Below are positions 6,108 to 62,420 of a stretch of DNA of 62,604 bases, one piece after another (within the stretch, counting starts at the first letter, position 1; every line of letters starts with the position of its first letter). The notes under the pieces were generated by a model. That model made no database searches and had not been told where the DNA came from. It saw nothing but the letters and a program-made list of their open reading frames with translations. This DNA is from a virus. Both the position numbers and the translations under genes were made by a program. The stretch lies in IMG/VR virus record IMGVR_UViG_3300003690_000007, positions 1 to 62,604 of that record, one strand, 5' to 3'.

Positions 6108-6143
6108 GTGAACTCCGGGGATAAGAAACACCGGTTTAGTTCC

Positions 6144-6172
6144 TTGACACGGGCCTACTATGTTGATAGTAT
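6144..6172 (+). promoter_or_regulatory. sigma70-like promoter
   Basis: TTGACA (6144-6149), 17-nt spacer, TAGTAT (6167-6172), in the 6108..6190 gap. An AACACCGGTTT box (6127-6137) lies upstream of the -35. Confidence 0.5.
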
Positions 6173-6190
6173 GTAGTTGGAGGTGAGAGG

Positions 6191-8601: not shown

Positions 8602-8790
8602 ATGACTACAGAACCACAGCCGTGCATCAGTGTCCACGTCACCCTACCGCCGGATCTGGTCTCGGCGATTGACATCAAGGCCGGGAAGCGAGGTCGGTCG
8701 GAGTTTCTCAGGCGCGCCGCCGCGAAGGAACTTCAGAGTCCCGATCTGGCCGAGACGCTCCCACAAGGCCGGAGGAGGTCGAATGGATAA
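8602..8790 (+). CDS. ribbon-helix-helix (CopG/Arc-like) DNA-binding protein (62 aa)
   Basis: VHVTLPPDLVSAIDIKAGKRGRSEFLRRAAAKEL fits a beta-strand/helix/helix RHH layout. Confidence 0.65.
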   Translation: MTTEPQPCISVHVTLPPDLVSAIDIKAGKRGRSEFLRRAAAKELQSPDLAETLPQGRRRSNG

Positions 8791-9109
8791 GGATGACGCC
8801 AAGGGTCCGGGTCCGCCTTTCATCCGCCAGCCATATGACTGGATCAGCACCGACACCGGAATCGGTCGGTGCAACTGGCCGATGGTGGTGTGGACGGAAC
8901 TCTACAACCCGAGCCGTTGTCGGTGGTTTCTGTACCTCGACCGGGACGGGTCGTTTGGCACCGAAACGAATCTGATAACCGAGGAAGAGGCCCGCGAGGT
9001 GGCGGGAGATCACCTGATGGACCCTCGCGGTCTATCGCGGGAGATCACCCCCGAGCAACGCGCGGAGTACCATGCCCGCTATCTGGATATGATGAACGCC
9101 ACTGACTAG
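8783..9109 (+). CDS. hypothetical protein, partner of the RHH gene (108 aa)
   Basis: Internal ATG with SD ggaggaggtcga; overlaps the RHH gene by 8 nt; last gene of the plus arm. Confidence 0.6.
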   Translation: MDKDDAKGPGPPFIRQPYDWISTDTGIGRCNWPMVVWTELYNPSRCRWFLYLDRDGSFGTETNLITEEEAREVAGDHLMDPRGLSREITPEQRAEYHARYLDMMNATD

Positions 9110-24551: not shown

Positions 24552-24775
24552 CTGTTGTCGAGGGGGATGATCGGATCGACGCCGAATAGCTCACCGGCTT
24601 TCAGCAGCGCCGCACGCCCCACGCCTCCCTGCCACTCGCGTTCCTCGACCGGGATCACCTTGTTCAATGCCTCGGCGAAATCCGGGTCATCGTCGCAAAC
24701 CCACTCCTGCTCGTCGCCGTCCACGGCGATGCGACCGATGCCGTCGAGGTTGATCCATCCGATTGCTGGCATCAC
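24548..24775 (-). CDS. hypothetical protein (75 aa)
   Basis: 4-nt overlap with the upstream gene. Confidence 0.6.
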   Translation of the reverse strand: MMPAIGWINLDGIGRIAVDGDEQEWVCDDDPDFAEALNKVIPVEEREWQGGVGRAALLKAGELFGVDPIIPLDNR

Positions 24776-29700: not shown

Positions 29701-30625
29701 TCACACGCCACTCACCCGCACCATCCTTGGGTTTCTCGTCCTTCATCTCCTCGGCAGTCTTCGGCCACCCGTGACGGTACTCGGTGCCATCCATTGCGCG
29801 CTTCATGCCCGGAGGAAATTCGTCTCCCTCTTCCCAGTTCCGATCCCACATCGAGATCAGGTCTTTCAGGAACGGCTTACCGTTGGTGGATCCTCCAGTG
29901 CGAGCATCCTCGACCAGATCCTGTGGAGTGATCTCTCCCCTCGCGAACTTGCGACCCTCCTTGAGCAAGCTGACGATAGCGTCGGCCACCTCCTTGTCCT
30001 CAGTGAAGCTGACCGTGTCGTCGTCTCCTCCACCAAGCCCCAGCCCGGCCTCCTGACCCAACTCGACCCTGCTCTTGAGTCCGGTCTCCCTCACGGCATC
30101 GGAAGCGGTCGTCGCGTGGTACATCTTCTCGGGTAACTCGACCACCCCCTGAATCCCATCCGGAACACCGACGGCGAAGAATCCCATCTTGTCGGCTACC
30201 TTGGCATCAATCGCCCCGGTAGCGATTGCCAGACGTACCTGTTCCTTCCACTCACTCTCCCGGATTCTGTCGTGTCCGAACGCCCGGCGCACGACCTCCT
30301 TGCCGAACTTCTCATACAAGTCGTCGAGTCCGAGATCTGATTCAAACACCTCGGGGTGGGGATTGTCGAGTCGTGCGAACTCCTTCACCGGCATCCTCAG
30401 CGCGGGGAACTCGGACAGCTTGTGTCGCTTGGCCCGCCTCGACTTCTTCTGGTCGGCAGGCGACGACCCGCCCCCAGCAGACTCCGAGAACTTCCCATCG
30501 TCGGCGCGCGGGTGCTCGTCCTCCTTCCAGCGCGCATAAAACTCGCGAGCGAGCAAAGTTCGCACACTGCGAACCCTGCTCGCTCGCTGCACGGCGTGTC
30601 GGATGGTCTGGCTACTTCTTGCCAT
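26786..30625 (-). CDS. polyvalent effector protein: R-S-ExE ADP-ribosyltransferase + C-terminal transglutaminase/papain-like Cys-His-Asp domain (1279 aa)
   Basis: LFRG ... LSTATSF ... TESEVVV (nt ~27740-28060). GDCYPEAG ... IAHAWVEIGDVVYDG (nt ~26940-27100). Three linker motifs lie at nt ~30468-30545, 29255-29335 and 27275-27355. Confidence 0.75.
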   Translation of the reverse strand: MARSSQTIRHAVQRASRVRSVRTLLAREFYARWKEDEHPRADDGKFSESAGGGSSPADQKKSRRAKRHKLSEFPALRMPVKEFARLDNPHPEVFESDLGLDDLYEKFGKEVVRRAFGHDRIRESEWKEQVRLAIATGAIDAKVADKMGFFAVGVPDGIQGVVELPEKMYHATTASDAVRETGLKSRVELGQEAGLGLGGGDDDTVSFTEDKEVADAIVSLLKEGRKFARGEITPQDLVEDARTGGSTNGKPFLKDLISMWDRNWEEGDEFPPGMKRAMDGTEYRHGWPKTAEEMKDEKPKDGAGEWRVIEGAHETAPGKFAAWERAQPPEDALYDRFQMYKNYLTFREYAGGPMNPGFFLSDPEALANIDESQIKTVEVSPVDGAQGHQMSALGEWRTWSGDAVDIVDIYRKQLQVFTDRSPLDREFCRRGFYKRPFDESKIKRDEGGRFSTKAGTGKVKTDTVGSMRNLEKFQDGLTNSVIEILKDSLGKGGDEADARAAAFWYGSTHSPDEGDVPHPSLFSKEARNASKAALNKSLTERMVKRDPSLGGRSQAAHPRGRHTAERAVRMWVDLWATTSADEHLEAIAMQLAAAEEFGMDPDPRFEPEPLPDIPELEDLYRVLSKTSPQAYDRKMPSTSFPTHVMAARNVQRAVTSGPWSPSGRPPIANADEFAKLVDDNLRMRKAVDDDTLTDYDPRDDQGVTFKVAQEGWYGRDEAGELTAGTRTVNVTEELWSGHLRQMEYLNVQARGEKPGGNYRDPGFVRDHVGFDPEADYDTNVRHFYDALYKSATDHEPYLEWEKTSQEWQRIKDGNEPRTQAREFYQGHIAKDMRNFVRSQYENTQDKLKEMGFKPGDTITLFRGMNWVEDGRKPPEGIFDISRDDLRKFVPSKHLHAEALFQPMSSYSMTLSTATSFASGGPNSFARGTASVVAASHVPIEAILSMPTTGVGCLTESEVVVMPHDGDTHFWIDRVGEDPALRPEEQHLVVDPEQFAGLAYREHLKSKWKGPTGALFEGRGDDLLTSGRLVGTPGYDSPAWYAKDRDPDVLVLDFDELVHNADWPKRTDDSSEALGLDDDDAEKLDKEFYRRGFYGRKFDESKIKRDKGGRFATKAGGGKTSGGGKVVSAKEGQKIHAEATAYAEKHSPHLFSHPTIADAPEGAKNLIDRPLGTPMPGDCYPEAGRLMLDNMFSAGNDDFREMRLVHGTVTMGNIPIAHAWVEIGDVVYDGTHTQFYDKASYYQFCDVSVEHTYDDAEMAGWMSQTEHWGPWEDTEGVTSE

Positions 30626-31550
30626 CGTCCTTGAGTTGGATCAGGTACGGGAAGCGCTTGCCCTTGGGTACATCGTCCGACGGAAACTCGACACCGCTGT
30701 CGTCAATCGGCAACCGCCTCAGTTCCTCGTCGCTCGGCATCTTCACCTTGCGGTCCATCGCCCATTCGATCTTCGCCCGTTTGGCCCACGTTCTCATTCT
30801 GCGAACGGGTACGATCAGGTTGAAGCTCTCCCCGGCACCGCGCACGAGCATACCGATCAGACGCCCGTCTGTCTTGTAGACACCGCCGCCACTCGAACCG
30901 GGAAACGCCGGGCACGTCGTTTGATCGAAAACCGTCTTGCCGATCAGTCGACCATGTTGGGACATGATGCCGCTCGTCATCGAGTTCGACCCCAGACGAC
31001 CTCCGAGCAGGCTCCCGACGTGGTACAACCGGGTTCCCAACGGCGGGATCGGTTTGTCGAGGTAGAACTCCACGCTGCTCTTGATGAAGCCGCGCTTGCG
31101 CACGCGCAGGAGCGCGAGATCCTCTCCGTGGTCGGCGTCGGAATAGCGGATGACGGCCGCTGACATCTCAAGAACGCCGACGGTGCGTCCATCTTCGATG
31201 AGCGTCTTCACAACCTTCGCGTCCTTGAACTCGATCACCGTCCGCTTCGATCCAGTCTTCGCGTCAACCACCTGTCTTGTGCTGCGAAGGTCATCAATCA
31301 CATGGGCTGCCGTCCACACGAACGTCTGGTCTCCTCGGACGAACGCCACGCCGGAACCCTCCGACGAGGACGCGCGTATCGTCACCGAGATGTCTTGAAG
31401 GTGTTGGGGAACGCCAGCCTCCGGCGTGCAGTCCTTCTCGGCGTCTGCGGCGGCGATCATGGAGGTCGTCACCGGGTAGCCGCCGGGTGAAATCGGGATC
31501 AGGCCGAGCGTGGCAATCGACAGTGCTGCTAGAACGAGGAACGGTTTCAT
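30612..31550 (-). CDS. trypsin-fold (S1/DegP-like) serine protease with N-terminal signal-peptide-like helix (312 aa)
   Basis: MKPFLVLAALSIATLGL. Catalytic triad: His in WTAAHV, Asp in DLALLRV, Ser in PGSSGGGVY. Confidence 0.8.
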   Translation of the reverse strand: MKPFLVLAALSIATLGLIPISPGGYPVTTSMIAAADAEKDCTPEAGVPQHLQDISVTIRASSSEGSGVAFVRGDQTFVWTAAHVIDDLRSTRQVVDAKTGSKRTVIEFKDAKVVKTLIEDGRTVGVLEMSAAVIRYSDADHGEDLALLRVRKRGFIKSSVEFYLDKPIPPLGTRLYHVGSLLGGRLGSNSMTSGIMSQHGRLIGKTVFDQTTCPAFPGSSGGGVYKTDGRLIGMLVRGAGESFNLIVPVRRMRTWAKRAKIEWAMDRKVKMPSDEELRRLPIDDSGVEFPSDDVPKGKRFPYLIQLKDDGKK

Positions 31551-31576: not shown

Positions 31577-33202
31577 TCAGTCGTCTTGACTGTCTGTCGT
31601 GGTGTATTCGTCATTCTCCATTTCATCCCACATCGCGTCGAGGTCAGCCAGTTCCTCGGGCGACAGGTCCGGCTCCTCGACCAGAGCGGTGGCCTGTTGT
31701 GGGGGCGTGTCCTTGTCTTTCTGGTACTGGTCGGGGAGCTTCCGCGCTGCCACCTTGCGGCGGATGTACTTGTCGAGAATCTTGCTGCTCTGAGAGCCTT
31801 CGCTCGTGTCAAACACGAGATGGACGATTCTGCCGAACTTTGTCCACCACGCACGGCCCTCCTTATGCTTGAGCAGTTCGAGAATGTCGACGCTGCATTC
31901 ATCCTCGAGTCTGAATGCAGCGTCAGGACAGTCGCCTGACAGTCCCAACTTCTCCAGCAGGTCCGGGGAAACTTCGCTACCGTCGACTGTTTCGAGCAGG
32001 TCGAAGATGTCAACGCTGGCCCCGCCGTATCCCATCTTCGGCCAGACATCGTAACCGACCACTGGAGATAGTCCCTCCCCACCCTCCCCAAGTCCCGGTC
32101 CCTGCCCCGCCGCCGATACTTTGATTTCAGCAATTCCTTCTTCGCGACAGAACTGAACCTGCTTACTCAACATTCGCGACCCGATACCTTGTCCCTGATA
32201 TTCAGGTTTCACCCTAAGCGTCTGGTTTGTAACCGTTCGGGTTCCATCTCCCTGAAAGTAAAACATTCGATTCGCATGCACCTTTTCATGTTGGACCGTC
32301 ACATCGGCGACCCAAGTTCCCGTTCTGGTGTCACTGGACAGCAAGACCCACACCTTCGCGTCATCGGGGGCACCGACCAGACTCGCCATACGGGAAATGG
32401 GAATTCCCGTAGCCTTCGTGAACAGCTTCGAATTCACCCCCGGAGTGCGCGACCCCACGGGGATGGGGATCCGACCGAAGCTCCTGTGCCCGTAGCGCAC
32501 GCCTCCGCTGGCGACCTTGGCCTTGGATGGCTGGATGTTCGGGCTGGATACCGGATCCTTGTCCTTCACGCCCGCGTACTGGACTTCATCGAAATCGTGA
32601 GCCGCGTCGAGCAGATCGTGGATGTTGGCCTGAACTTGTAGCAACAGCATCTTCGAGTTCGGGTCGATAAGACGCTGTGCCGCCCACCTGTGGTGTCCGT
32701 CGAGGATGTGCCCGTCCGCGCTCGCGAGGACGCGGCTGTCGGACTTGGACGGATCGAACTTTCCATCGCGCATCGCCTGTGCCATCCCGTGAACCTTGTC
32801 CCAGTTCAGTTCCTCTTGAGTCCCCTTCAGATCTTGGACCGACACCGACGCTTCCTTGATCTCGATACCCTTTGCTTGTAGCTGTTCGACGAACGGCTCG
32901 ATGTTGTCGGCGGTGATCTGTGGCATATCGTGTCTCTTCAGGCCGATGTTATCCTCGAGGATCTGGGCCTCCCGTGACTCCTGATCAGAATCGGGTTCCG
33001 CTTGGCCGGGCGCGGTGGACGTGCCCCCGGCACTGGAGAAGCGACCGGGATGCTTGGCATCACCGCCACGGTTCACCGTGGACTCATCCCACGTCTTCTT
33101 GTATATCTCTCGTCCCTGCTCCTCGCTCGCGAGCGGAACCAACGGGAGATCGGCAATCACGCCGTCTATCTCGACACTCCCCCGGAAGATTTCAGGAATC
33201 AT
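31577..33202 (-). CDS. polyvalent effector protein: ParB/Srx-like nuclease domain + GNAT acetyltransferase (541 aa)
   Basis: LKGTQEEL...ILDGHHRWAAQRL (nt ~32678-32708). RVKPEYQGQGIGSRMLSKQ (nt ~32170-32196). One linker motif, YKKTWDESTVNRGGDAKHPGRFSSAGG. Acidic C-terminus. Confidence 0.75.
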   Translation of the reverse strand: MIPEIFRGSVEIDGVIADLPLVPLASEEQGREIYKKTWDESTVNRGGDAKHPGRFSSAGGTSTAPGQAEPDSDQESREAQILEDNIGLKRHDMPQITADNIEPFVEQLQAKGIEIKEASVSVQDLKGTQEELNWDKVHGMAQAMRDGKFDPSKSDSRVLASADGHILDGHHRWAAQRLIDPNSKMLLLQVQANIHDLLDAAHDFDEVQYAGVKDKDPVSSPNIQPSKAKVASGGVRYGHRSFGRIPIPVGSRTPGVNSKLFTKATGIPISRMASLVGAPDDAKVWVLLSSDTRTGTWVADVTVQHEKVHANRMFYFQGDGTRTVTNQTLRVKPEYQGQGIGSRMLSKQVQFCREEGIAEIKVSAAGQGPGLGEGGEGLSPVVGYDVWPKMGYGGASVDIFDLLETVDGSEVSPDLLEKLGLSGDCPDAAFRLEDECSVDILELLKHKEGRAWWTKFGRIVHLVFDTSEGSQSSKILDKYIRRKVAARKLPDQYQKDKDTPPQQATALVEEPDLSPEELADLDAMWDEMENDEYTTTDSQDD

Positions 33203-36200
33203 ACCAACTCCCTGTCTTTCCAGAATGCGTAGACGTTCGGGTATTCCTCCCGAATCTTATTGCGGTCCTTGCGGGTCAGGATCAGTCGACCGAACTCCGC
33301 GAATCCTTCACGGGCATCTTGGCTCGCGTGGTTTGTGAGTTCGCCATTTGAAAGGTCCACCTTCCACGCCTGTTTCCAGTCCTCCTCGCTGGACAGGTGT
33401 CCGCTGAACCGACCATCGATGGCGTGTGTCATCGCGTGAGCAAAAATGTGTACCATCCGCGCACCCTTCGGAAGCCCGCCTCCCCCGTGGTCCGTGTAAC
33501 CGTGGGGGTCGATCATGTGCAAGCTGGCCGTGTGCGGATCATAGGCCGCGATCGGGTGACCATCCCTCCCCCAGCCTATGCTGCCCATCAGGCCGATCGA
33601 TTCGTCCATCGCCTCCCGGCTCCCGTGGAACAACATCTGCTTGACTGATCGGGACATCCGGCGGCGACCGCGTTGGGACATCTTGTTGGTAAGGTCTGTC
33701 ACCGCTCGACCCATGACCTTCCGGCGAGCGGCAGTGCTGACCCCACCTGATTTGATGGCCGAGTGTTCGAGACCTTGCTTGCGTCTCTCGCCGAGTTCGG
33801 CCCTCACCGTTGCCGCGCCTTTCTCCATGCGCCACAGCCTCTGGGGTACTCCCGGCGCATCGGGGTCTTCAGGAAGCTCTGCCATGATAAGCCATGTATC
33901 ACCGCCGGGCATCTTGATTTTATCATTCGCCTTCTTGCGGCTGCGCGTCGTCGCGGGTGCGTCCTTGCCGGGAGCCGCTGCGCCGCCCTTTGTGGCAAAC
34001 TGTCCCTTGTCGTCGCGCTTGATGTTCGATTCTTCAAACTGCTTCCGGTACTGCGCAGCTTCGGTCGATCCGAAATTGAAGTTGAGCATGAACTTGGAAC
34101 ACGGCTTGCCGCCTTCCTCGCAGAACTCGGTGTAGAAATCGCTGGCGTCCTGCCGGTAGTCGAACCCGGACCCCTTGTGGGCCTGCCCCTTGTTATCGCC
34201 CGTCGTGTAGACAAAGTGGTTCTGCCCAGCATCGGACCAGATCACCGAATCCTGATTGTACTTCTCGCCCATCTCGACCATCTCGCCGCGTGACGCCTCG
34301 GGGATCATCACCAGAATCGCCGCTTCGTCGTGACCCTCGTATCGCCCGTTGCCTTCCGAGAACACGAAGCCGCGAGCTACGAGGTCGTCCTTCAGCTTGT
34401 CGTGGCGGGCTGCCGCCTGCTCGGGCGACATATCCGGCTCGTAGTTCGGGTTCTTGCCCGCGCTGATCAGGCCGACGATGCCGTGCTTCAGCAGGTCGTC
34501 GACTTCCTCAAGCGTGAAGTGGACGTGCTCGCCCTTGCCCGGTTCGCGGCGTGCGATCTTCTCGGCCAGCCCGCCGACCTTCAGCCGCTTCCCCGCCTCG
34601 GCGGCGTGCTGTCGCCACACGTCGGGAACCTGCGGCTTGATCGGCAACTTGTCGGGCGCGGTCGTTGTTGCCGATCCACCGCCTGAGCCGAACTTCCCAT
34701 CAGCAGCACGCGGGTGATCGGCTTCCCGGAACTTCGCGTAGTCCTCGGTCAACTCGTCGTAGGTATCCTGTTCTGCCTCGGTCCACTTGCTGAAGAAATC
34801 CTCGCCGTACTTCTCGTCCATCTCGAACGTGAAGTCGGACACATCGTCATACGTCTTCTTTGGTTCGGGCTTCTTCTCTGCCGACCAGACCTCTACCTCA
34901 TAGCCCCATCCGGGGAGCGGCTCACGATAGCTTTCGCCCACACCTCTCCTCAGATTCACGTCGTCGAAATCCCCCTCAAGACCAATGTAGGCGATTCTGT
35001 TTCCGGGGGTTGATCGCTCGCCAGCCCATTTTCCAGTTTCGAGAATCTCCTTGAACTCCTTGATAGACCCTCGCCACCTCTCAACGGCGGTGTTCTCGTT
35101 TTCCCACGCGACCCTGACCATGACACCCGACGACCGAACCGTTCCCGTCAGGCCCATGTTGCGAGCCTGCTGTTTCAGTTCCCAGATCGCGTCGTCTCTC
35201 AGCTTGCGAACCTGAGCTTTGAGTTCCTTGACCTTTCCGACCTTCCATCCTGTCTTGATGTCCTCGGAAGACCAGAGACCCTCGTCGGTCTCGTCGGCGG
35301 CACTCCCGCCGCCTGCCTTGTCCGAGAACTGGCCGCCCTCGTCGCGATCGTGCTGCGACTCATCGAACTGCTTGGCGTATGTGATGCGAGGGTCTTCTGG
35401 ATCGAAGTCGCCCTTGTTGCCGATCGCCGACTTGATCTGTGTCGGCTCGAACGCGATGAACGTCGTGGCCCGAAGATTGTCGGAGTAGTAGTCGTTGAAC
35501 TTGATCCCGTCGAACCCGGCACTCACAGCCTGCGCTCGCAGAACCTTCACAATCTCGTACTGGTTGAGAATCTGGTAGAGGTCGCGGCCCGCAACCGGGA
35601 AGTCCCGCATCGACACGTCCAGACCGTTGTCTTTCAACAGCGACACCAGCTTCTTGGTGCTGACCCGGCGCGCTGGCAACGAGGTCAGGTCGAGCGGGTT
35701 CTCCATCTTCGCGAAGACAGGCTTGATCTGTGAGCCGACCCCGAGACCTTTCTTGCCCTTGTATCCGAATAGGTAGTCTGGCTCGTTTCTGTCCTCGTGA
35801 ACCTCCCGCATGAGTTCCCGTGCTGACTTGATCGCACCCTTGACCTCGGACTTTATCCCCTTTTGCTTCATGAGACCCTTGGGGTCTTCGATGCTCCAAT
35901 CGAACTTGCCACCGATCTCGTCGGCCAAGTACATGGCGTGCTCAAGGTCCAGCCCGGTTGCGATAGCCATCCCGCTGGGCTTGTGTGTCACGCTGTAGTA
36001 AGTCTCGTCTGGATCGTGGACGGGAAACATCCCGCTCCCTTTCTCAAACGGGGTGTGCGACCCACTAGCCAAGACGAGATCGTGGTGTGGGGTGATGTAT
36101 CCGGACCGGTCCTCCATGCCGTCCTGAGTCCCAATCTGGACCGTGGCCTTCTTGTAGTCGAACAGTTCCACCGTCGGTTTATTGAGTGGCTTTCCAGACA

Positions 36201-39108
36201 CAGCGAACTCGGACGCGAACTTGGGGTCGTCGCTCAGGTAGTGCCAACCGAGACCGGCCAGCCCCTCGTCGTCGCCACGCCAGAACTTACCGAACGTCTC
36301 GAAGCTCTGGTCGGTCCCGTGGTAGAGACGCAGCGGCTCGCCCTGATCGTCAATGACCTTCGAAGCGCCAAACCACTCCGTGAACTTCGGCGTGTCGGTC
36401 TGCTTCCCCTTCGACTTCTGCTCCGACGAGCCGTCTCCTGATTTCTCAGAGAACCGACCGGGGTGCTCGGAGTCACCGCCACGACTCACCTTCGACTCGT
36501 CGAACTTAGCGTGCCGCTTGGCGTACTTGTCGTCGGTTTCGGCCCCCTGAACAAACCCAGAATCATGCACACCCAAGTACCAGTCGGCTTCCGGGAAAAA
36601 CCCGTCGAGCCTTCCGCCGTTGGTGATCTTGACCGTGGACACGCCTCGCTGCAAAAACGCGCCTTTCCGAAACGCCTCTACGTCAATGCCCCGTTCTACC
36701 GACCTCGGGAACTTGTCCCCAAACTCCCACCCGCTGATCGCAGCACCAAACTCCTCGGCTTCTTTCCGGGACTCCTGTTTTGTGATGGGGCCAATCCCGT
36801 CCATGAACTCATCGACCTGACCTTGCCAGTCTCTCGCGGCAACGGACACCCCGTACTTGTTGTATTTCACCGCAGACTGAATCAGGAACTCTTGCCACTC
36901 CAAGTGGCTGTCGAATGTTCGCATCCCGCCGCTTTTGATCAGCACCGGCGTCTTGGTCTTCTTGTCGCCAGCGGGTGTCCTTGCATAAATGTCCGCTTCT
37001 GACGGAACACTGGTGAAGAAGACTCCGAGTGTGTCGAGTATCGGCTTGCCTGTTCGCAAGACCTTGCCGGTTGTAAGTTTTCCGTGTGCATCCGCGTCGT
37101 AGCTCTGGCTTCCGTGCCACACGACCCGTGGGTCACCGTTGTCGTCACGAAGAATGTCGTCTCTCCCCTTTGCCATCTTCAGCAAAGACTCCGAGGCTGA
37201 CTTCTCGCGGGGAGACAACGCTGTCGGGTCGCCGCCCGACTTCTCGGAAAATCGCCCCGGATGGTCGGGGTCACCGCCGCGAGAAACCTTGCTCTCGTCG
37301 AACTTGGCGTGCCGCTCGACGATGTGACGGTCAGCCCGCTGGCGCTCCCCCGTGTCAAAAGGGATGTCCCGCTGCTGCCACTTCCCGTCGGTCGAGACGT
37401 AGGTAACGGTCTGCCCGTCCACACTGGCCTCACCAAAAAGTTCCCGCAGGACAGAGTCGGTGTCCCGGTCGACATCGGGCGGGGGGGGCACGTCGTCCAT
37501 CCGGTCCATCTGTTCGACCCCATCCTGCGGGGTTGGTGGCTGCCCAACTCCACCCGGTCCCATACCGGGAAACATCCCGCCACCGCCGCCGGGTGGCGCG
37601 CCGCCCATCTGGTCCTCTGGCATCTCAAGCACGCGGTCCTCCTCGGTCGGCACCGCCGCACCGATGAGTTCCATCACGTCGCTTTCCTTCAATTTAGCGC
37701 CCATCTGGAACGCCATCTGCCACGCGCTGAGCTTCTCGGACGGGTCTTGCTCCTCCACATCGATCTTGAAGGAGATATGGATTCCCTTGGCCGATGGGAA
37801 GTTCCAGTCCTTGATGTATTTGACGAGTTGGTGGGTGATCGTCTCCTCCAAGTTCGTCGCGTCGTACTTGATGATTTGCAAGAACGTGTCGAGATGTAAC
37901 TCGGCCAGCCCGCTGCCAAGCCCTGTTGCTTGGGCCTCGGACGAGAGGGTCTGGCCGAGTATGTATCGTTTGATCCTGTGACCGTAGTAGTCGTTCAGGA
38001 TGTTCTGGAGCGCGTCGATGCCACCCATTCCCGGTTCGATGATCTCGACTCCGAAGGCGTGCGCGTCGTCGCCCATCGGTTTCGGGACGAGGACGATGTT
38101 CCGCTGGTTGGCGACCCGCTCCTCGGCTGCGATTCGCGCCTTCTTTTCAGCTTCCTCGTTGCCCTGCGGGTAATACCAGATCTCGATTCCACCCGCCGAC
38201 CGCTCGAGGTACTCCATCAGGAACGCGAGGCACTCCTGCTTCTGAAACCAGTCCCAGTAGATTCTCGATCGCAGGCCGACGCCGTGAACCATCCCGGCGT
38301 CGATGAAGTTGTGCCAGTCTCCGTCCTCGATCGTGTGCTTGTGAATCGCCAGCAGAGGACGTTCCCAGTCTTTTAGAAAGTAGGCCAGCCCGCTCTCGGT
38401 CGGCTCCACGTCCCATCGACCCGAGATCTTGTCGTCAGACATGAACCGGGATCCGATCTTGATCCCGACCTGATCGGGCTTGTTGTCGGCGCTTCCGTCG
38501 TCATACCGAAAGACGAGCTTGTCCCCGTTGACCGGAATCCATCCGGGGTTGTCGCGGTAGGCGGCGGGCATCACCCGCATCCTGCCGTTGACATCGCTCC
38601 AGCGGTATCGGTGCTGCACTGCGTAGCGTCCGTACCACACCGCGTGCAGTAGATTGAACCGATACTCGGTGAACCGATGTATCCGGTTCAGGATCTTCGT
38701 CAGTTCCTCGACGAGTGCCACTTGCTCGGTCGAGTTCTCGTCCTCGGGTTCGAGATGCCAGCCAAGCATCGCGGTGCAGCGCTGCCTCGCCTCGACGCAC
38801 TCCATGATCCCGCAGTCGTTCCGCATGAAGCGCGCGTTCTCGCGCGAGTCGCGCAGGGCTTCGTCATTTGCCTGATAGACCTTCGAGAATGAACCGGAGA
38901 TCCCGGCGAACGACAGGACGTGCGGGATGGGGAACTTGCCGAAGTTCGGCGCGGAGCCGGGAATTCCCGTGGCCGGGTCTGTCGCTGCCTCGTTCCGCTC
39001 TTGGACAATCTTCTCGATAAAGCTCGCGGGCCTGCGATCCTCCCCGTTGCCGTTGCCGTTGCCGCTGGCTGCTTGCAACGCATCGGTCAAATCGCGAACC
39101 TTCGCCAT
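33199..39108 (-). CDS. portal protein (Mu gp29/DUF935-like, about the first 500 aa) fused to ~1,450 aa of polyvalent effector domains (1969 aa)
   Basis: Portal hallmark GQTLSSEAQATGLGSGLAELHLDTFLQIIKYDATNLEE, then a Gly/Pro linker (GGAPPGGGGGMFPGMGPGGVGQPP). Two ART-like modules follow (VVWHGS...FFTS; WFGASKVIDDQGEPLRLYHGT...QIKSAIGNKGDFD). Then a DUF3293-like LISAGKNP module and a degenerate metallopeptidase end (FAHAMTHAIDG...EGFAEFG). Five linker motifs. Confidence 0.75.
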   Translation of the reverse strand: MAKVRDLTDALQAASGNGNGNGEDRRPASFIEKIVQERNEAATDPATGIPGSAPNFGKFPIPHVLSFAGISGSFSKVYQANDEALRDSRENARFMRNDCGIMECVEARQRCTAMLGWHLEPEDENSTEQVALVEELTKILNRIHRFTEYRFNLLHAVWYGRYAVQHRYRWSDVNGRMRVMPAAYRDNPGWIPVNGDKLVFRYDDGSADNKPDQVGIKIGSRFMSDDKISGRWDVEPTESGLAYFLKDWERPLLAIHKHTIEDGDWHNFIDAGMVHGVGLRSRIYWDWFQKQECLAFLMEYLERSAGGIEIWYYPQGNEEAEKKARIAAEERVANQRNIVLVPKPMGDDAHAFGVEIIEPGMGGIDALQNILNDYYGHRIKRYILGQTLSSEAQATGLGSGLAELHLDTFLQIIKYDATNLEETITHQLVKYIKDWNFPSAKGIHISFKIDVEEQDPSEKLSAWQMAFQMGAKLKESDVMELIGAAVPTEEDRVLEMPEDQMGGAPPGGGGGMFPGMGPGGVGQPPTPQDGVEQMDRMDDVPPPPDVDRDTDSVLRELFGEASVDGQTVTYVSTDGKWQQRDIPFDTGERQRADRHIVERHAKFDESKVSRGGDPDHPGRFSEKSGGDPTALSPREKSASESLLKMAKGRDDILRDDNGDPRVVWHGSQSYDADAHGKLTTGKVLRTGKPILDTLGVFFTSVPSEADIYARTPAGDKKTKTPVLIKSGGMRTFDSHLEWQEFLIQSAVKYNKYGVSVAARDWQGQVDEFMDGIGPITKQESRKEAEEFGAAISGWEFGDKFPRSVERGIDVEAFRKGAFLQRGVSTVKITNGGRLDGFFPEADWYLGVHDSGFVQGAETDDKYAKRHAKFDESKVSRGGDSEHPGRFSEKSGDGSSEQKSKGKQTDTPKFTEWFGASKVIDDQGEPLRLYHGTDQSFETFGKFWRGDDEGLAGLGWHYLSDDPKFASEFAVSGKPLNKPTVELFDYKKATVQIGTQDGMEDRSGYITPHHDLVLASGSHTPFEKGSGMFPVHDPDETYYSVTHKPSGMAIATGLDLEHAMYLADEIGGKFDWSIEDPKGLMKQKGIKSEVKGAIKSARELMREVHEDRNEPDYLFGYKGKKGLGVGSQIKPVFAKMENPLDLTSLPARRVSTKKLVSLLKDNGLDVSMRDFPVAGRDLYQILNQYEIVKVLRAQAVSAGFDGIKFNDYYSDNLRATTFIAFEPTQIKSAIGNKGDFDPEDPRITYAKQFDESQHDRDEGGQFSDKAGGGSAADETDEGLWSSEDIKTGWKVGKVKELKAQVRKLRDDAIWELKQQARNMGLTGTVRSSGVMVRVAWENENTAVERWRGSIKEFKEILETGKWAGERSTPGNRIAYIGLEGDFDDVNLRRGVGESYREPLPGWGYEVEVWSAEKKPEPKKTYDDVSDFTFEMDEKYGEDFFSKWTEAEQDTYDELTEDYAKFREADHPRAADGKFGSGGGSATTTAPDKLPIKPQVPDVWRQHAAEAGKRLKVGGLAEKIARREPGKGEHVHFTLEEVDDLLKHGIVGLISAGKNPNYEPDMSPEQAAARHDKLKDDLVARGFVFSEGNGRYEGHDEAAILVMIPEASRGEMVEMGEKYNQDSVIWSDAGQNHFVYTTGDNKGQAHKGSGFDYRQDASDFYTEFCEEGGKPCSKFMLNFNFGSTEAAQYRKQFEESNIKRDDKGQFATKGGAAAPGKDAPATTRSRKKANDKIKMPGGDTWLIMAELPEDPDAPGVPQRLWRMEKGAATVRAELGERRKQGLEHSAIKSGGVSTAARRKVMGRAVTDLTNKMSQRGRRRMSRSVKQMLFHGSREAMDESIGLMGSIGWGRDGHPIAAYDPHTASLHMIDPHGYTDHGGGGLPKGARMVHIFAHAMTHAIDGRFSGHLSSEEDWKQAWKVDLSNGELTNHASQDAREGFAEFGRLILTRKDRNKIREEYPNVYAFWKDRELV

Positions 39109-56017: not shown

Positions 56018-56986
56018 TCAGATCAAGGTCGGCTTCGACTTCGGGACACGAACGAACTTCACCGATGTACCCTCGCGCCAGTGGTTCCACATCAGTCGGC
56101 AGGCCCAGTTTATGTCAAGAATCGCGACGGCCCGTCTCCCGTTCGCACCACCAGCCCCGCGAGCGTGGTCGACCGAAATGTTCAGCAGCCAGTTACGCAG
56201 GACGAGCCTCGGGTCTGTCGGTGACGTGAATCCCACGCCGTTCGCCACCCGAGACCAGAACTCGTTGCTGAGATTCGGTCGGTGGGCAAACGTCGCGTAC
56301 ATCACCGCGATGACCGACGCCCGTCTGAGGTGCATGAAGTCCGAGTGTTCCACCGAGTGGAGGAATTTCCCCACCTTGATGCTCAGGTCACGGTACTCGC
56401 CACGCATCAGCGCCCCGATCTCGTCACCGTCCCGGCGGCGACCGCCATCGTAGCCCCAGCGATACTGAGTGAATCCGTGCGCGAGGACTGTTCGGATGCC
56501 CTTCGGGAGATCGGAGAACTCGGGATCACCGCCGAGGTAACCCGCCACCACGAACTGCTTGCTCCGCTCCTTGCCCCGGTCGATCGACGTGTAGAGCTTC
56601 GCCATCTCGTCCATCGACGAGGCTTCATATTTCAGCACATGCACGTCACCGACCGGCTTGTCGTGCAGGATCGTTGCCCACGCCGTGTGCTGCCCGTTCA
56701 TGCGGTACTCGACATCGCCGACCACACATATGATGATCTGCACTAATTCTGGAACGAACGTGCCACGTTCCATCGTGCGCACGAGGTAGTCGACGTGGAT
56801 CGAGTTCAGCGTCCGGTCATCTCGAAACTCGACCAACCCTTCCAGAATATGCGTCGCGAAATCCGGCGTGAGCGGGACAACGTCTCGCTTCACCAGCTTC
56901 GCCGCCCGCGCGGCAAATCCCTTGACCGCCTTGACCTCGCTAGAGTTCGTGGGGGCGTCTTCCTTGGCCTTGTATTCTCCTGTCAT
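56018..56986 (-). CDS. ParB/Srx-superfamily-like protein (322 aa)
   Basis: SIHVDYLVRTMERGTFVPELVQIIICVVGDVEYRMNGQHTAWA resembles the ParB N-terminal / DGQHR-type core. Confidence 0.4.
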   Translation of the reverse strand: MTGEYKAKEDAPTNSSEVKAVKGFAARAAKLVKRDVVPLTPDFATHILEGLVEFRDDRTLNSIHVDYLVRTMERGTFVPELVQIIICVVGDVEYRMNGQHTAWATILHDKPVGDVHVLKYEASSMDEMAKLYTSIDRGKERSKQFVVAGYLGGDPEFSDLPKGIRTVLAHGFTQYRWGYDGGRRRDGDEIGALMRGEYRDLSIKVGKFLHSVEHSDFMHLRRASVIAVMYATFAHRPNLSNEFWSRVANGVGFTSPTDPRLVLRNWLLNISVDHARGAGGANGRRAVAILDINWACRLMWNHWREGTSVKFVRVPKSKPTLI

Positions 56987-58180: not shown

Positions 58181-58989
58181 TGTGCCATCTCCTCGCGTTC
58201 AGAGTTTACGAACGGGCAGGTTGCCCAGTAACCGCACCACCTTGAACCGCACCACCACGCGCCCGGCATCGCCGGGGCGAAGTTCCCCGCCTGAATCGCC
58301 GACGTGATGACGTTCAGACGATTTGCCAGTGCCGTGAAATCGACCGGGCCTCTGGTGGACGACACCACGTCCCGACTTGTCTTGGTCTTTGTCTTCACGA
58401 TCGTGTCCAACCTCACCTCGCTCGCATCCTCTCCGGTCTCCCGCTTGTGAGCGGCGGCGTAAATCGTAAGCTGCGTGGAGTGATCGGCGTCGGATTGACT
58501 TTTCTTACGACCACTCGTCTTGAAATCGACGACCCGGTTCTCGTCGTCGGTGAGGTCGATGATCCCGACGAGGTCGTGCGAGTGCTTCGGTAACTCGATG
58601 CGAACCCACTGCTCGCACGTCACCGGCTGGTAGTCCGGTGCCTGCTCGGTCGCGTGGCACGTCGCCATGTCGACCACGGCGTCGAGATTCTCACCGATCA
58701 CATCCTTGACGTTTCTGCCCTCGTCGGCGACTTCCAGCGTGTAGCCCCCGGCAACAGCCGACTCGAATCCTTCAGCAGCGGCAGAGACAATATCGTCCAC
58801 CGGCAAATCCTCGTGCGATTCGATCTTCTGCTTGAAGTTCGTCTCGGCTCCCCGGTGGACCCCGGTGCCCCGGAGCATCGCGAACCCCGGCGGGATGATC
58901 TCTCCCTCGATGTACCGGCGGCGGTAAGCCTCGGGACAGCGGGAGAACATATCAAGCTGTGTCGCGCTCAGGTGTTGTTTCTTCTTCAT
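58177..58989 (-). CDS. PD-(D/E)xK exonuclease, Cas4/RecB-like with C-terminal Cys cluster (270 aa)
   Basis: FSRCPEAY...GIIDLTDDENRVVDFKTSG...WWCGSRWCGYWATCPF: a D...D/ExK core plus 1+3 Cys, as in Fe-S Cas4/AddB nucleases. Confidence 0.7.
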   Translation of the reverse strand: MKKKQHLSATQLDMFSRCPEAYRRRYIEGEIIPPGFAMLRGTGVHRGAETNFKQKIESHEDLPVDDIVSAAAEGFESAVAGGYTLEVADEGRNVKDVIGENLDAVVDMATCHATEQAPDYQPVTCEQWVRIELPKHSHDLVGIIDLTDDENRVVDFKTSGRKKSQSDADHSTQLTIYAAAHKRETGEDASEVRLDTIVKTKTKTSRDVVSSTRGPVDFTALANRLNVITSAIQAGNFAPAMPGAWWCGSRWCGYWATCPFVNSEREEMAQ

Positions 58990-59140
58990 GGTTCCTCGTC
59001 AGTTCTTCTCGGACGATGATCACGGATCGGGGTGCATCGATCCCGATCCTAGCCTGACCGGATTGTGACTTGATCAGGGTCACTCGAATGTCGTCGCCAA
59101 TCAGGATCGCTTCAGTATCTTTCCTCGACAGCACCAGCAT
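58952..59140 (-). CDS. csrA: CsrA/RsmA-family RNA-binding translational regulator (62 aa)
   Basis: MLVLSRKDTEAILIGDDIRVTLIKSQSGQARIGIDAPRSVIIVREEL aligns along its length with E. coli CsrA ([48 protein letters not shown]). Confidence 0.85.
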   Translation of the reverse strand: MLVLSRKDTEAILIGDDIRVTLIKSQSGQARIGIDAPRSVIIVREELTRNHEEETTPERDTA

Positions 59141-59449: not shown

Positions 59450-59478
59450 ATTGTACGGGGTGTTTGTTTAGGTGTCAA
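59450..59478 (-). promoter_or_regulatory. sigma70-like promoter of the minus arm
   Basis: Minus strand: TTGACA (59478-59473), 17-nt spacer, TACAAT (59455-59450). A ~100-nt leader with a GC-rich hairpin (CCCCGCCCGCCGGGACGGGG) precedes the RHH gene. Confidence 0.6.
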
Positions 59479-59501: not shown

Positions 59502-59813
59502 ATGCGACCCGACGAATTCGAGCTTGGCGTCTGCTGGTCATGCCAGACCGAACTGAGCCACGACAGCGTGGTCCTTCTGGATTCACAGACCGCGATCCAG
59601 TGCTGCCGGGAGTGTTGGGGTAAGATCGACGTGGCCGACCGCGTCCAGACGGCCCTGCTGTTCCACGACCGAACCGATGCCGGGCTTGGGATCGCCGACG
59701 CCACCCACGCGATCGTCGGAGTTGTCGAGACGATCATCCGACACTACATTCACCAGTCCCGGTTCAGCAACGGAAAATCGGATGGCGGACAGGACTGGAG
59801 TGGTCTGAACTGA
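59502..59813 (+). CDS. zinc-ribbon-like protein (103 aa)
   Basis: CWSC...CCRECW; first gene of the plus arm. Confidence 0.6.
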   Translation: MRPDEFELGVCWSCQTELSHDSVVLLDSQTAIQCCRECWGKIDVADRVQTALLFHDRTDAGLGIADATHAIVGVVETIIRHYIHQSRFSNGKSDGGQDWSGLN

Positions 59814-59821: not shown

Positions 59822-61798
59822 ATGACACGCAAACAGGAAACCTACGCGGCATACCGCCAATCGCGACGCCGACTCCTGTACGCTCGCTGCGAGAAGGGCG
59901 CGAGCAAGAGTGACTGTCCGCGCGACGGTGGAAAGTTCTCGTCAACCTCGAAGTCGAAGACACTCCCGGTCGTGGTTGGAATCCCCGGACCTCTCGGGGT
60001 GATCGCCTCCATCGTCGCAACCAAGATCGCCGCCGCCCGGAAGCAGACCCCCGAGGCCAAGCGCATCACGGTCAAGATCAAGAGCGGGAAGAAGTGGCTC
60101 GGAAAGGAGGCAGAGAAAGCGGTGGCGAAGCAGGGGTTCGGGAGCGTCACCGACGCCCTGAGTTCTCAGTGGATGATCGACAGTGACCAGCGGGAGTACG
60201 TCGGACAGTCTCCTCCTCGCAATGCCGGGGAGAATGACAAGAGCTATGCCCGGCGGGCCGTCGACAGCCTGCCCAAGCCCAAGAACTTGCCAGAGGACCA
60301 CATCCAGTATTTTGACATCCGCAAGGCGACCGATACGGTTGCGCTGTCGAATCTGAAACCGACTCGGGCGCGACCGGGCGGCATCGAGCGTGCCGCTAAG
60401 TTCATGCGGATGACATACGAAAGACTCTTGTCACCCAAGACGAGACGAGACCCGATCGATGTCGAGGACAATGGAGACGGAACCTACACCATCCTCGACG
60501 GCAACTCTACGTTCGCCACCGCTAAGGAGTACGGGTGGGAGTCGATCCCGGTGCGCGTGATCGCCAAGGACCGGCACGGAAGAACATACCGCTGCGGGCC
60601 GGGTGCGACCACAACGGCCTGTCCCCGAGACGGGGGAAGGTTCGCTTCCGGCAGAAAAGGGAAAGCCGTCGCCGGGAAGCGCACACGCTCGACGACAACA
60701 TCTATCGGAGGGAAACTCCAACACGACAAAACATCTACTCGCCAGCGCCGGGACTTTCTCAAAGACCAAATACAAAAAATATATACACATTTGCCCCCCG
60801 CATGGTCTGGAGTTCCGGCCGTACCCGACGCTATTGTCGCCGCCGAACTCAACCGAACAAACAAGCCGGAACTCGCGTGTTGTCCAAAGCTCGACAACCT
60901 CCTCGACTCCATGAAGGTCACAACCCAGAAGCCTGACCAGCCCGATAGGTGGCGCTTCGACGACGAGTGCTGTGTGCTAGACCACGAAGGCACTCCACAG
61001 GTCGTTGACGGACAACTGGTTCTCCGGGATGAGTTTCTGGAACAGGGACGCAAGATGATCGCCGAGGCCAACGATATCCAGCCGCACTTCGCGGCCGCAC
61101 TCAGTGGACCGGTCAGGGACTCTCTCGCGGGAGTCACGGCGCGTCCGGGTTATCATATCTTCGACAGCGCTGAAAACTTCGAGAAGGGCAAGGCTGCGAT
61201 TCGTAAACATCCCGAACGGCCTCATGTCATCGTCGGCGGGGTCAAGGGTCTGAAGCGTGCAGCAGAGAAGGCAGCGATGCGAACGGATGGTAGCTGGATT
61301 CACATTCGCGACTTGGTGCGAGCCACCGTGCTTTCCCCGAGCGTCGCGGACCTCGCGACGACCGTGGAGCGGACATCGCAATCACTTGATCGATCGGGCT
61401 TCAAGCTGGTCAGCCTGAACGACCGTGTGAACAAACCGACGAATACTGGATACCGAGACGTGCAGATGAGCTTTCGCCACGAGGAGACGGGACACATTTG
61501 CGAGTTGCTGATCACGACCTCGGATATGTGGATGACGAAAGAGTCCGCTCCGACCTCTCACGGTGATGGTGCGCACAAGTTGTACGAGGTCCGGCGCAGC
61601 ATCATGGAGGTGGTAGAAGCCGAGGGAGGAAAGCATTCCCACTCTAACGCGAACAAGGTGCTCGGTAGTGCCACCGAGGAGAAGGACTTGTACGTCCGGG
61701 CGTGGGATGCGTCACACAGAGACAGCGTCTATGGTGGTTCCGGCTCGTCCGTGGTGGCTGGAACACGGGCGGCGAACACTCCTCGCGTCGGCGCATAA
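59822..61798 (+). CDS. ParB-like domain + RelA/SpoT-like nucleotidyltransferase (small alarmone synthetase-like) fusion (658 aa)
   Basis: VALSNLKPTR...TYTILDGNSTFATAKEYGWESIPVRVI (ParB-like). GGVKGLKRAAEK...IRDLVRATVL...NTGYRDVQMSFRHEETGHICELLITTSDMW...HKLYEVRR (RSH synthetase-like). Two copies of the linker motif in its CPRDGG[KR]F form. Confidence 0.7.
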   Translation: MTRKQETYAAYRQSRRRLLYARCEKGASKSDCPRDGGKFSSTSKSKTLPVVVGIPGPLGVIASIVATKIAAARKQTPEAKRITVKIKSGKKWLGKEAEKAVAKQGFGSVTDALSSQWMIDSDQREYVGQSPPRNAGENDKSYARRAVDSLPKPKNLPEDHIQYFDIRKATDTVALSNLKPTRARPGGIERAAKFMRMTYERLLSPKTRRDPIDVEDNGDGTYTILDGNSTFATAKEYGWESIPVRVIAKDRHGRTYRCGPGATTTACPRDGGRFASGRKGKAVAGKRTRSTTTSIGGKLQHDKTSTRQRRDFLKDQIQKIYTHLPPAWSGVPAVPDAIVAAELNRTNKPELACCPKLDNLLDSMKVTTQKPDQPDRWRFDDECCVLDHEGTPQVVDGQLVLRDEFLEQGRKMIAEANDIQPHFAAALSGPVRDSLAGVTARPGYHIFDSAENFEKGKAAIRKHPERPHVIVGGVKGLKRAAEKAAMRTDGSWIHIRDLVRATVLSPSVADLATTVERTSQSLDRSGFKLVSLNDRVNKPTNTGYRDVQMSFRHEETGHICELLITTSDMWMTKESAPTSHGDGAHKLYEVRRSIMEVVEAEGGKHSHSNANKVLGSATEEKDLYVRAWDASHRDSVYGGSGSSVVAGTRAANTPRVGA

Positions 61799-61920
61799 TA
61801 ACGCCCCGGCGTCCCTGCCGAGGCGACCGCGCGCCGGAATCCATTCCAGCGGCCCGGCGAAGACCATTCTACGGCAGCGACTTTTCTCGTTCCACATTAG
61901 AAATAACACGACGTTTGTTG

Positions 61921-61948
61921 TTGACATCTTCTCAACTATGGCTATAAT
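61921..61948 (+). promoter_or_regulatory. consensus sigma70 promoter
   Basis: TTGACA (61921-61926), 16-nt spacer, TATAAT (61943-61948). An AACACGACGTTT box (61905-61916) abuts the -35. Confidence 0.65.
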
Positions 61949-62000: not shown

Positions 62001-62237
62001 ATGACGACCACGACACGACGACCTACAGCCACGCGACTCGGGCCGGGCCATTATCGGGTGACCGTCCACGGTCGGACCTACGAGATCGAGGGCGACCGCG
62101 CGGCGACCGGTTACGGACTGAGCGGTACGCGCCCGGTTTGGGATTTGTTCGAGACCAGCAACGGGCGTCGAGTTTACGTCAACGACTTCGATTCTAAGAG
62201 AGACGCGGTCGACCACGCTATGTGTGCGGGTCCATAA
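62001..62237 (+). CDS. hypothetical early protein (78 aa)
   Basis: First ATG downstream of the promoter's predicted start site. The upstream part of ORF 61668..62237 overlaps the promoter and the previous gene. Confidence 0.5.
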   Translation: MTTTTRRPTATRLGPGHYRVTVHGRTYEIEGDRAATGYGLSGTRPVWDLFETSNGRRVYVNDFDSKRDAVDHAMCAGP

Positions 62238-62255: not shown

Positions 62256-62420
62256 ATGAGCCGCAAGTGCAAAATCCCAGCCTGCAAGCAGCGGTCGACC
62301 AAGCCGTGCGACGGCTGCGGCAAGCCGATCTGCCCCCACCACAGCAGCGGCTGGATGGCGGGCACGCCGTGGTGCCGCAAGTGCCGGAACGAGCAGGAAG
62401 CACGACACGCCAGATCCTAA
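62256..62420 (+). CDS. zinc-ribbon protein (54 aa: MSRKCKIPACKQRSTKPCDGCGKPICPHH...CRKCRNE)
   Basis: SD gaggaggg 6 nt upstream. It ends in the TAA of hairpin repeat copy 5. It is below the ORF-track cutoff. Confidence 0.55.
   Translation: MSRKCKIPACKQRSTKPCDGCGKPICPHHSSGWMAGTPWCRKCRNEQEARHARS

Follow-up and report, generated by a model that had tools for sequence, protein, structure and literature searches.

A phage protein that joins a ParB/Srx-fold module to a Tas1-like RSH domain, a candidate effector acting on adenine nucleotides

The stretch of DNA considered here, hereafter the window, is the full 62,604 nt of IMG/VR record IMGVR_UViG_3300003690_000007, and the gene of interest is a 658-aa open reading frame (ORF) on its plus strand (59822..61798), referred to below as the main ORF. 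Its product is built of a linker motif, a ParB/Srx-fold module, a second linker motif, a basic linker, a helical middle region and, at the C-terminus, a RelA/SpoT homologue (RSH) domain resembling that of the bacterial toxin Tas1. The reading that we favour, and to which we give rather better than even chances, is that this protein, made of two putative nucleotide-handling modules parted by conserved linkers, serves the phage in host takeover as an effector that attaches pyrophosphate to adenine nucleotides. An earlier note, made from the sequence alone, had already proposed a nucleotide-pyrophosphorylating phage effector, and this is still the best reading of its predicted activity, whereas several other parts of that proposal are revised below.

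The main ORF, which has GAGG 8 nt upstream of its ATG, is a real gene, because it has a full-length ortholog, P0044 (691 aa; 39% identity over residues 8-641), encoded on the metagenomic contig L004, and because both of its domains give confident AlphaFold models. L004 is syntenic with the window; in both, the RSH gene is flanked on one side by a divergent set made up of a PD-(D/E)XK nuclease gene, csrA and a small ORF. A search of IMG/VR with the whole protein found no close relative. The ORF and every motif that the earlier note had quoted were recovered within a few bases of the positions given there, namely TYTILDGNSTFATAKEYGWESIPVRVI, described as a ParB N-terminal-type core (aa 221-247, nt 60482-60562, compared with the earlier ~60491-60540), GGVKGLKRAAEK (aa 472-483), IRDLVRATVL (aa 495-504), NTGYRDVQMSF (aa 541-551, nt 61442-61474), ICELLITTSDMW (aa 559-570), HKLYEVRR (aa 585-592), the unusual E-L-L-I-T-T box, and two linker motifs with relatives elsewhere in the genome.

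The C-terminal half belongs to the RSH nucleotidyltransferases, as had been proposed, and the catalytic acidic and basic residues are in place. The earlier note had named two results as speaking against it, a failure of profiles to place residues ~430-620 in this family and a loss of these residues, and neither is seen. Assignment of a Tas1/Apk-like RSH pyrophosphokinase domain (aa 441-632; 61142..61717, plus strand) comes from a family search, a profile comparison with PDB, an AlphaFold model and Foldseek. The query by itself matches PF04607 (RelA_SpoT) with E 0.073 and 13.8 bits, short of the 27 bits that the gathering threshold requires; phmmer against PDB with the whole protein gave noise only for this half, and residues 400-658 found nothing in a word-indexed search of 5.8 billion proteins. 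Residues 469-645 are 33% identical to ATI15652.1 (493 aa) of Bordetella phage PHB04, whose matching region scores 30.6 bits and so clears that threshold. Searched exhaustively with HMMER, 1.84 billion representatives yielded 549 homologues at E<=1e-3, these being representatives at 50% clustering, with lengths of up to 4,399 aa; PF04607 was matched at E<=1e-3 by 47 of the 91 homologues scanned.

A profile of 37 domain sequences searched against PDB matched Tas1 (6ox6_A) at E 1.2e-20, followed by small alarmone synthetases (SAS), RelP, RelQ, RelA and Rel at 1.9e-7 or weaker, and the CapRel and FaRel2 chains were not matched at E<1. The AlphaFold model of residues 441-640 (pLDDT 94, pTM 0.88) has the SYNTH fold, with helices around a central mixed beta-sheet; its best Foldseek match is Tas1, and its top 50 in PDB consist entirely of RSH synthetase domains. 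A direct BLASTP comparison with the Tas1 toxin domain was set aside as evidence, since it is marginal and partly misaligned (E 3e-4), and the link to Tas1 therefore rests on the family profile and on structure. Overall, RSH homology and fold are as good as certain and membership of the Tas1 branch is highly probable; this branch of the family is large and divergent, with Tas1/Apk1 as its closest solved relative.

Conservation within the family was counted in 150 homologues, and the roles of the query residues were mapped from FaRel2, for which the structure with APCPP shows that a basic helix binds the triphosphate, an Asp holds Mg2+, a Glu reads the adenine amino group, a Gln contacts the donor adenine and a loop Tyr (Y128) stacks on the acceptor base (PMC11782079). 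The counterparts here would be the triphosphate-binding helix motif K475-x3-R479-x3-K483 (61244..61270, plus strand; K475 and K483 in 150/150, R479 in 140/150), the Mg2+-binding Asp in D497-L-V-R500-A-T502 (61310..61327, plus strand; D497 in 150/150, R500 in 148/150), the acceptor-base loop, or G-loop, G543-Y544-R545-D546 with its stacking Tyr (61448..61459, plus strand; Y544 and D546 each in 149/150), and the E-x-Q box, which reads E561-L-L563 (61502..61510, plus strand; E in 150/150, Q in 144/150, and L in 3 including the query). The query retains K475, R479, K483, D497, R500, G543, Y544, R545, D546, E561, K573, H585, Y588, E589 and R592, and the sole invariant or nearly invariant position at which it departs from the family is the Gln of the E-x-Q box. 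From the alignment, the enzyme machinery appears intact but for this one donor-adenine contact, and the domain is probably catalytically active.

These motifs also tie the family to Tas1, with which it has in common the derived forms PxK..R..K, DxxRxT, ExQxN and GHxxYE..R. In both, [AG]-P-x-K-x3-R-A-x2-K replaces R-x-K-x3-S-x3-K (PIKSRERAMQK in Tas1), D-x-x-R-x-T replaces the canonical D-x-x-G-x-R (KDLARNT in Tas1), and E-x-Q-x-N and A-K-E...G-H-x-x-Y-E-x-x-R are also present. The acceptor loop differs, being GYRD, invariant in the sub-branch of the query, and GYSG in Tas1.

With ATP as donor, Tas1 (Apk1) pyrophosphorylates AMP, ADP or ATP at the 3'-OH, so that (p)ppApp is made and the cell dies by ATP drain (PMC10083569). 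The RSH domain of the main ORF would most likely bind the ATP-Mg2+ donor through K475, R479, K483, D497 and E561, and an adenine nucleotide stacked on Y544 would most likely receive the beta,gamma-pyrophosphate on its 3'-OH. Such a reaction would consume ATP and ADP and give pApp, ppApp and pppApp; its effect would be to halt the energy and purine metabolism of the host in the course of takeover or to disable ATP-dependent defences. Because the loop of the sub-branch is GYRD rather than the GYSG of Tas1, adenine acceptors are a best guess, and we put adenine-nucleotide products at an even chance or slightly better.

The same loop bears on the alternative that survives best, a (p)ppGpp or mixed ppGpp/ppApp synthetase that would elicit a stringent-like response and reprogram host transcription and translation. 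GYRD retains the Arg of the canonical GYRSxH, Iyer et al. (2017) predicted such an activity for polyvalent RelA/SpoT domains (PMC5512222), and bifunctionality or specificity for (p)ppGpp is known among exported enzymes related to Apk1 (PMC12691689). However, the closest characterised relatives produce (p)ppApp and the His of GY+SxH is not conserved in the family, and we regard this alternative as unlikely.

Also unlikely is an enzyme that targets translation in the manner of the small alarmone synthetase toxins (toxSAS) FaRel2, PhRel2 or CapRel. The catalytic core is common to these enzymes, their acceptor is likewise an adenosine 3'-OH (PMC11782079), and the domain has an ordered N-terminal helical extension (aa ~408-470) that falls within the region of homology to the family, as in tRNA-binding toxSAS; specificity is not legible in the sequence. 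On the other hand, the clade-specific motifs are those of Tas1, the profile that reaches Tas1 at 1e-20 leaves the CapRel and FaRel2 chains unmatched at E<1, and FaRel appears only at Foldseek rank 50. The earlier note had pointed to toxSAS and to Phrann gp29 as background. Neither a (p)ppGpp SAS nor a toxSAS of the Phrann gp29 type is the nearest enzyme of known function; that place falls to Tas1/Apk1, which makes (p)ppApp at the expense of ATP.

A weakened or dead domain (Q563L, N565T), serving as a nucleotide-binding scaffold or as a decoy that sequesters, for example, alarmones or defence signalling nucleotides, is a further alternative to which we give quite a small chance. It draws on the Gln, present in 144 of the 150 members and kept in P0044, and on the contact that its counterpart makes with the donor adenine in FaRel2. 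However, all of the other invariant residues are kept, and the Gln is absent from six members (L, R or I; the query and five others) that retain the other catalytic residues. Since those five keep everything else, L563 looks like a tolerated change and not a sign of decay, although there is a modest chance that it weakens activity.

Turning to the N-terminal half, the ParB/Srx-fold module (aa ~140-249, with a hidden Markov model envelope of aa 113-260; 60239..60568, plus strand) carries the signature LPxDPxxYF, TRARPxGI, PIxV and DGNST. With residues ~118-253, the 5.8-billion-protein index gave just two matches: P0003, in which the same module is followed by a canonical RelA_SpoT domain, and P0002, a fragment that has an RSH C-terminus, the module and ART-PolyVal. 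A profile of these three module sequences brought in 40 further proteins, almost all of them solo modules of 93-170 aa without Pfam annotation. The module matches phrog_8071 at E 3e-4, SbnI is its only weak sequence match, and weak Pfam matches to ParB_N, the only Pfam model that the module reached, occur in 11 of 37 module homologues. Membership of the DdrB-like ParB family was considered and rejected, as Pfam gave no such match for the query at E<=10 or for the 37 module homologues at E<=1.

The assignment of the fold, which the earlier note had made from the sequence, is borne out by modelling. AlphaFold, run on residues 100-293 with homologues, gives a confident core at ~140-250 (block means 83-98, mostly ~95) between disordered flanks, with low pLDDT after aa ~255. 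The top 50 Foldseek matches in PDB are all Noc, ParB, KorB, SerK, SbnI, Srx or PadC (best E 2e-4, probability 1.00), and the named matches in the viral library BFVD are nearly all ParB/Srx-type proteins; the structural alignments span just 80-100 columns of the ParB N-domain. In the family alignment, LPxDPxxYF and T-R-A-R-P-x-G-I occupy the place of the 'QPR' peptide near the N-terminus of ParB, P-I-x-V falls within the central strand, and D-G-N-S-T, invariant or nearly so, stands at the place of GERR in ParB, DGHHR in ParB-type nucleases and GGCHR in sulfiredoxin. We consider the ParB/Srx fold very likely.

The module looks, from its model, like a bare Srx-type nucleotide-pocket domain rather than a DNA- or CTP-clamp targeting device, and its nearest analogies would be small-molecule Srx-fold enzymes. 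Sulfiredoxin, SerK (a free serine kinase) and SbnI are likewise stand-alone nucleotide pockets of the ParB N-domain type without DNA-binding domains, although their GGCHR or DGHHR-type box is replaced by DGNST here. The module would most likely act on or sense the same nucleotide pool as the RSH domain, or restrain the enzyme, with DNA targeting unlikely; our confidence in any specific role is low. The earlier note had instead suggested that the module binds DNA or CTP and targets an alarmone-synthetase-type enzyme to DNA or to a nucleoprotein site, which we consider very improbable: the fold is that of the CTP-binding N-domain of ParB, Noc and KorB, and 'KPTRARP' would sit, from motif order, at the ParB 'QPR' segment, but DNA- or CTP-dependent targeting is without support because Pfam detected no helix-turn-helix or dimerisation domain after the module in the query or in the module homologues and there is no arginine box (GERR or DGHHR), the CTP-binding GERR being DGNST family-wide, and moreover the module is only ~110 residues long and is followed by a low-confidence basic linker, and most of its homologues are solo proteins of 93-170 aa.

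The pairing of module and RSH domain recurs. The same module is present in 30 of the 150 best RSH-family representatives, usually preceding the RSH domain by 50-200 residues and in three cases following it, in proteins of 268 to 4,399 aa. A scan with the most conserved module peptides picked out 13 IMG/VR contigs, eight of which have a Tas1-like RSH domain, in the same ORF in six and in an adjacent ORF in two, whereas the same kind of scan found no such module in 185,579 reference bacterial and archaeal genomes. In one IMG/VR protein of 607 aa (contig L011), both domains are recognised by Pfam (RelA_SpoT at 29.4 bits; ParB_N at E 1.4e-4). The module is thus paired with two RSH clades, Tas1-like and canonical, and this argues for a functional link rather than a chance fusion. 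Members of the RSH family are also fused to portals, InPase, Zeta toxin or ART-PolyVal domains.

Other occurrences of the fold are noted here as observations in their own right. Two ~220-kb ENA contigs that look jumbo-phage-like (L002 and L003) encode a solo module protein of 131 aa (gene at 6001-6396) directly upstream of a staphylococcal-nuclease-domain gene, with AcrVA2-like, MT-A70 and dCTP-deaminase genes near, and an IMG/VR polyvalent protein (L009 2..5065, plus strand) combines the ParB/Srx module with a eukaryotic-type topoisomerase IB core (PF01028, E 1.5e-14). The window itself had been said to hold three ParB/Srx-type domains. That of the main ORF stands, whereas the other two are visible by eye only, and Pfam, PHROGs and PDB sequence searches gave no ParB match for either: the 541-aa product of 31577..33202 (minus strand) has a classical ParB-nuclease 'LDGHHRWAAQR' box together with a GNAT domain and the linker motif WDESTVNRGGDAKHPGRF, and that of 56018..56986 (minus strand) has 'NGQHT', which is reminiscent of DGQHR/DndB-type ParB relatives.

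Two linker motifs flank the module, CPRDGGKF (aa 32-39; 59915..59938, plus strand; extended form RCEKGASKSDCPRDGGKFSS), which aligns with FDESKVNRSSDGTF in P0044, and CPRDGGRF (aa 267-274; 60620..60643, plus strand), which aligns with WDESKVKRGQPDNPGQF in P0044 and is followed by the basic low-complexity linker (aa ~275-312); the P0044 counterparts read FDESKVNR..G.F and WDESKVKR..G.F. A general form, [FWY][DNE][EPD]...[RK]...G-x-[FW] (for example WDESKHPRDEGGKF), lies between domains in ~30 of the 150 family proteins, and the motif is also found at the N-terminus of some solo ParB-module proteins. Across the genome of the window it takes the form [FW]DEsK(H/I/V)(P/K)RDxxGG[KR]F and recurs in 24772..26793 (673 aa), in 26786..30625 (1,279 aa, twice), in 31577..33202 and in 33199..39108, whose 1,969-aa product is a portal-ART-PolyVal fusion; a trypsin-like protease gene (30612..31550) is within the same portal block. 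The conserved Arg-Asp of the linker could be a protease site, with the cut after the Arg, or a packaging signal. Because the linkers, of the form [RK]-D-x-G-G-[KR]-F, are common to the main ORF and to polyvalent proteins of the portal block, they suggest that the protein is handled as virion cargo, is cut into separate modules, or both. Literature searches for a linker motif of the KHPRD type found nothing. A hydrophobic stretch, LPVVVGIPGPLGVIASIVATKIAAA, follows linker motif 1 (aa 47-72; nt 59960-60037); it is probably not a conserved membrane anchor, because the corresponding stretch of P0044 is not hydrophobic.

Among known systems, the nearest is Tas1/Apk1 of Pseudomonas aeruginosa (PDB 6OX6), the best match of the C-terminal domain by both profile and structure. 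Tas1 is a bacterial toxin of the type VI secretion system that carries PAAR as its delivery domain and has the gene for its immunity protein, Tis1, downstream, whereas the protein described here is encoded in a phage genome and carries a ParB/Srx module, in addition to the changed acceptor loop and the Leu in the E-x-Q box. Closer in setting is Apk2 (BcTas1), a phage-encoded, MuF-fused Tas1-like RSH effector that also makes (p)ppApp and depletes ATP, and that is followed by a Tis1-like immunity gene and sometimes by the (p)ppApp hydrolase Aph1 (PMC10083569). The PHB04 homologue has this layout, in the order portal gene, RSH protein, 69-aa ORF and HD_4 hydrolase. Unlike Apk2, the main ORF has no MuF domain and is not beside the portal gene, and its candidate partners are a four-Cys protein of 103 aa and a displaced protein of 108 aa, both considered below. 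The toxSAS enzymes (FaRel, FaRel2, PhRel/Phrann gp29 and CapRel) share the RSH synthetase fold and the use of ATP as pyrophosphate donor, and are growth-arresting effectors held by small partner proteins; however, the kinship to them is much more distant than that to Tas1, and the system described here is not a chromosomal toxin-antitoxin module and has no pseudo-zinc-finger antitoxin domain.

The polyvalent phage proteins described in 2017 are multi-effector polypeptides whose repertoire includes RelA/SpoT and ParB-superfamily domains (PMC5512222), and in some Helicobacter prophages these two occur within the same protein (PMC5512222). The main ORF, with at least two effector-type domains (ParB/Srx and RSH) in one phage polypeptide, is of the same type in this respect, and the genome of the window also encodes a portal-ART-PolyVal fusion. 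In contrast to those proteins, the main ORF has no metallopeptidase domain, is away from the virion block and does not match the DdrB-like ParB family. The suggestion in the earlier note that the fusion had not been described was too strong, given these proteins and the MuF-fused Apk2 reported in 2023 (PMC10083569). The effector type as such is already known, and this is not a new kind of system; our literature search found no paper uniting ParB, RelA-SpoT, phage and ppApp. What is new here is a Tas1-branch RSH effector that is joined to an unannotated ParB/Srx module, has neither MuF nor PAAR, carries an unusual Q-to-L change and has its gene in a small unit away from the virion block.

The main ORF was formerly taken to open the first operon of the plus arm, which runs from ~59.5 kb over the junction of the contig ends to ~9.1 kb. 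It does lie in that unit, but the first gene is a conserved 103-aa ORF (59502..59813, plus strand) whose stop is 8 nt before the ATG of the main ORF. Its product contains four Cys in a zinc-ribbon-like CxxC...CxxC arrangement, matches nothing in Pfam, PHROG or NCBIfam, and is 55-57% identical to a 100-aa ORF that abuts P0044 in L004. It is a candidate regulator or neutraliser of the enzyme, which it may restrain. A GC-rich hairpin (61802..61825), with no T-run on the plus strand, follows just past the stop of the main ORF, and a perfect sigma-70 consensus promoter, TTGACA-16-TATAAT (61921..61948, plus strand), lies 123 nt after the gene. Because this promoter starts the next transcription unit, the two-gene effector unit ends before 61921. 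After the promoter come a purine-rich leader, a 78-aa ORF (62001..62237) and a 54-aa Cys-rich ORF (62256..62420).

A second candidate partner is encoded at a distance. The small ORFs adjoining Tas1-like RSH genes in PHB04, L004, L007 and L008 show weak mutual similarity, and a hidden Markov model of four RSH-adjacent small ORFs, searched against the ORFs of the window, matched a 108-aa protein (8783..9109, plus strand) at E 1e-4. The family spans 62-108 aa and includes L004 5909..6130 (minus strand), L001 6567..6776, L007 2009..2239 and L008 1867..2055. The L004 homologue of 8783..9109 is convergent with, and touches, the RSH gene P0044, whereas 8783..9109 lies ~9.4 kb away from the RSH gene in the window. 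The small-gene block from 61.9 kb via the junction to 9.1 kb is inverted with respect to L004 5.9-15.9 kb, with order and homology kept, and the 108-aa protein is accordingly placed as a candidate cognate partner or immunity protein, putatively displaced by inversion.

Several observations weigh against an adenine-nucleotide effector of the Tas1 kind. Taken alone, the single sequence is without significance against PF04607 or Tas1. L563, in place of the Gln that contacts the donor adenine in FaRel2, could mean weaker ATP binding, and the acceptor specificity of the GYRD sub-branch may differ from that of Tas1 with its GYSG loop. The PAAR and MuF delivery domains of Apk1 and Apk2 found no match in Pfam, PHROGs or NCBIfam, the small-partner family does not match Tis1 by sequence, and the window contains neither a SAH/Aph1-type (HD) hydrolase nor a metallophosphatase like that of PHB04. 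The gene is outside the structural module, beside recombination genes and csrA, a position that by itself gives no hint of packaging. Finally, no sigma-70-type promoter was found upstream of 59502 on the plus strand. This last result lends no support to the action early in infection that had been suggested for the protein, and the linker motifs in common with portal-block proteins hint at packaging in the virion instead.

As for the genome as a whole, an exact 91-bp direct repeat is common to both contig ends (1-91 and 62514-62604), which marks the contig as circularly assembled and the ~62.5-kb genome as complete. Its G+C content is ~60%. The source is a tailed phage without a close cultured relative, because its terminase is at most 27% identical to that of any phage record. 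The 1,969-aa protein mentioned above (33199..39108, minus strand) combines a Mu-type portal (PF06074, E 7e-41), ART-PolyVal (E 1e-23) and a SAM-lyase-like region and is a portal-anchored polyvalent protein; it is followed by the GNAT gene (31577..33202) and the trypsin-like protease gene (30612..31550). A CsrA homologue (PF02599, E 2e-20; 58952..59140, minus strand) heads a divergent minus-strand operon with the PD-(D/E)XK nuclease, an arrangement kept in L004, and a near-consensus sigma-70 promoter (59478..59450, minus strand) lies by this operon. A Pfam scan of ten ORFs from the 1-12 kb end of the window, seven of the plus arm and three on the minus strand, gave no matches.

A bolder and more tentative idea, with a small chance of being right, is that the DGNST-type module is an obligate enzymatic or regulatory partner of phage RSH pyrophosphokinases, the two forming a nucleotide cassette that works in two steps. 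On one version of this idea, the domain with the Srx fold would phosphorylate, hydrolyse or sense the 3'-pyrophosphorylated product and so yield a nucleotide other than (p)ppApp; on another, the module would gate the toxin until injection and cleavage at the R|D linkers. If true, the idea would give the ParB fold a function new to it and reveal a new logic for the control of alarmone-type toxins.

Phage Tas1-like enzymes have been known as MuF fusions in temperate phages. The branch extends far beyond these, with 549 representatives, mostly in phage proteins of the polyvalent type, and about a fifth of the family proteins are coupled to an unannotated ParB/Srx module that was found in viral contigs only. 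If (p)ppApp is indeed made, phages would apply ATP-draining alarmone chemistry to their own hosts, and one may then ask what protects a phage from its own toxin: timing, packaging or a small partner protein. Furthermore, the recurrent pairing may offer a handle on the function of a ParB fold that has neither DNA binding nor an arginine box.

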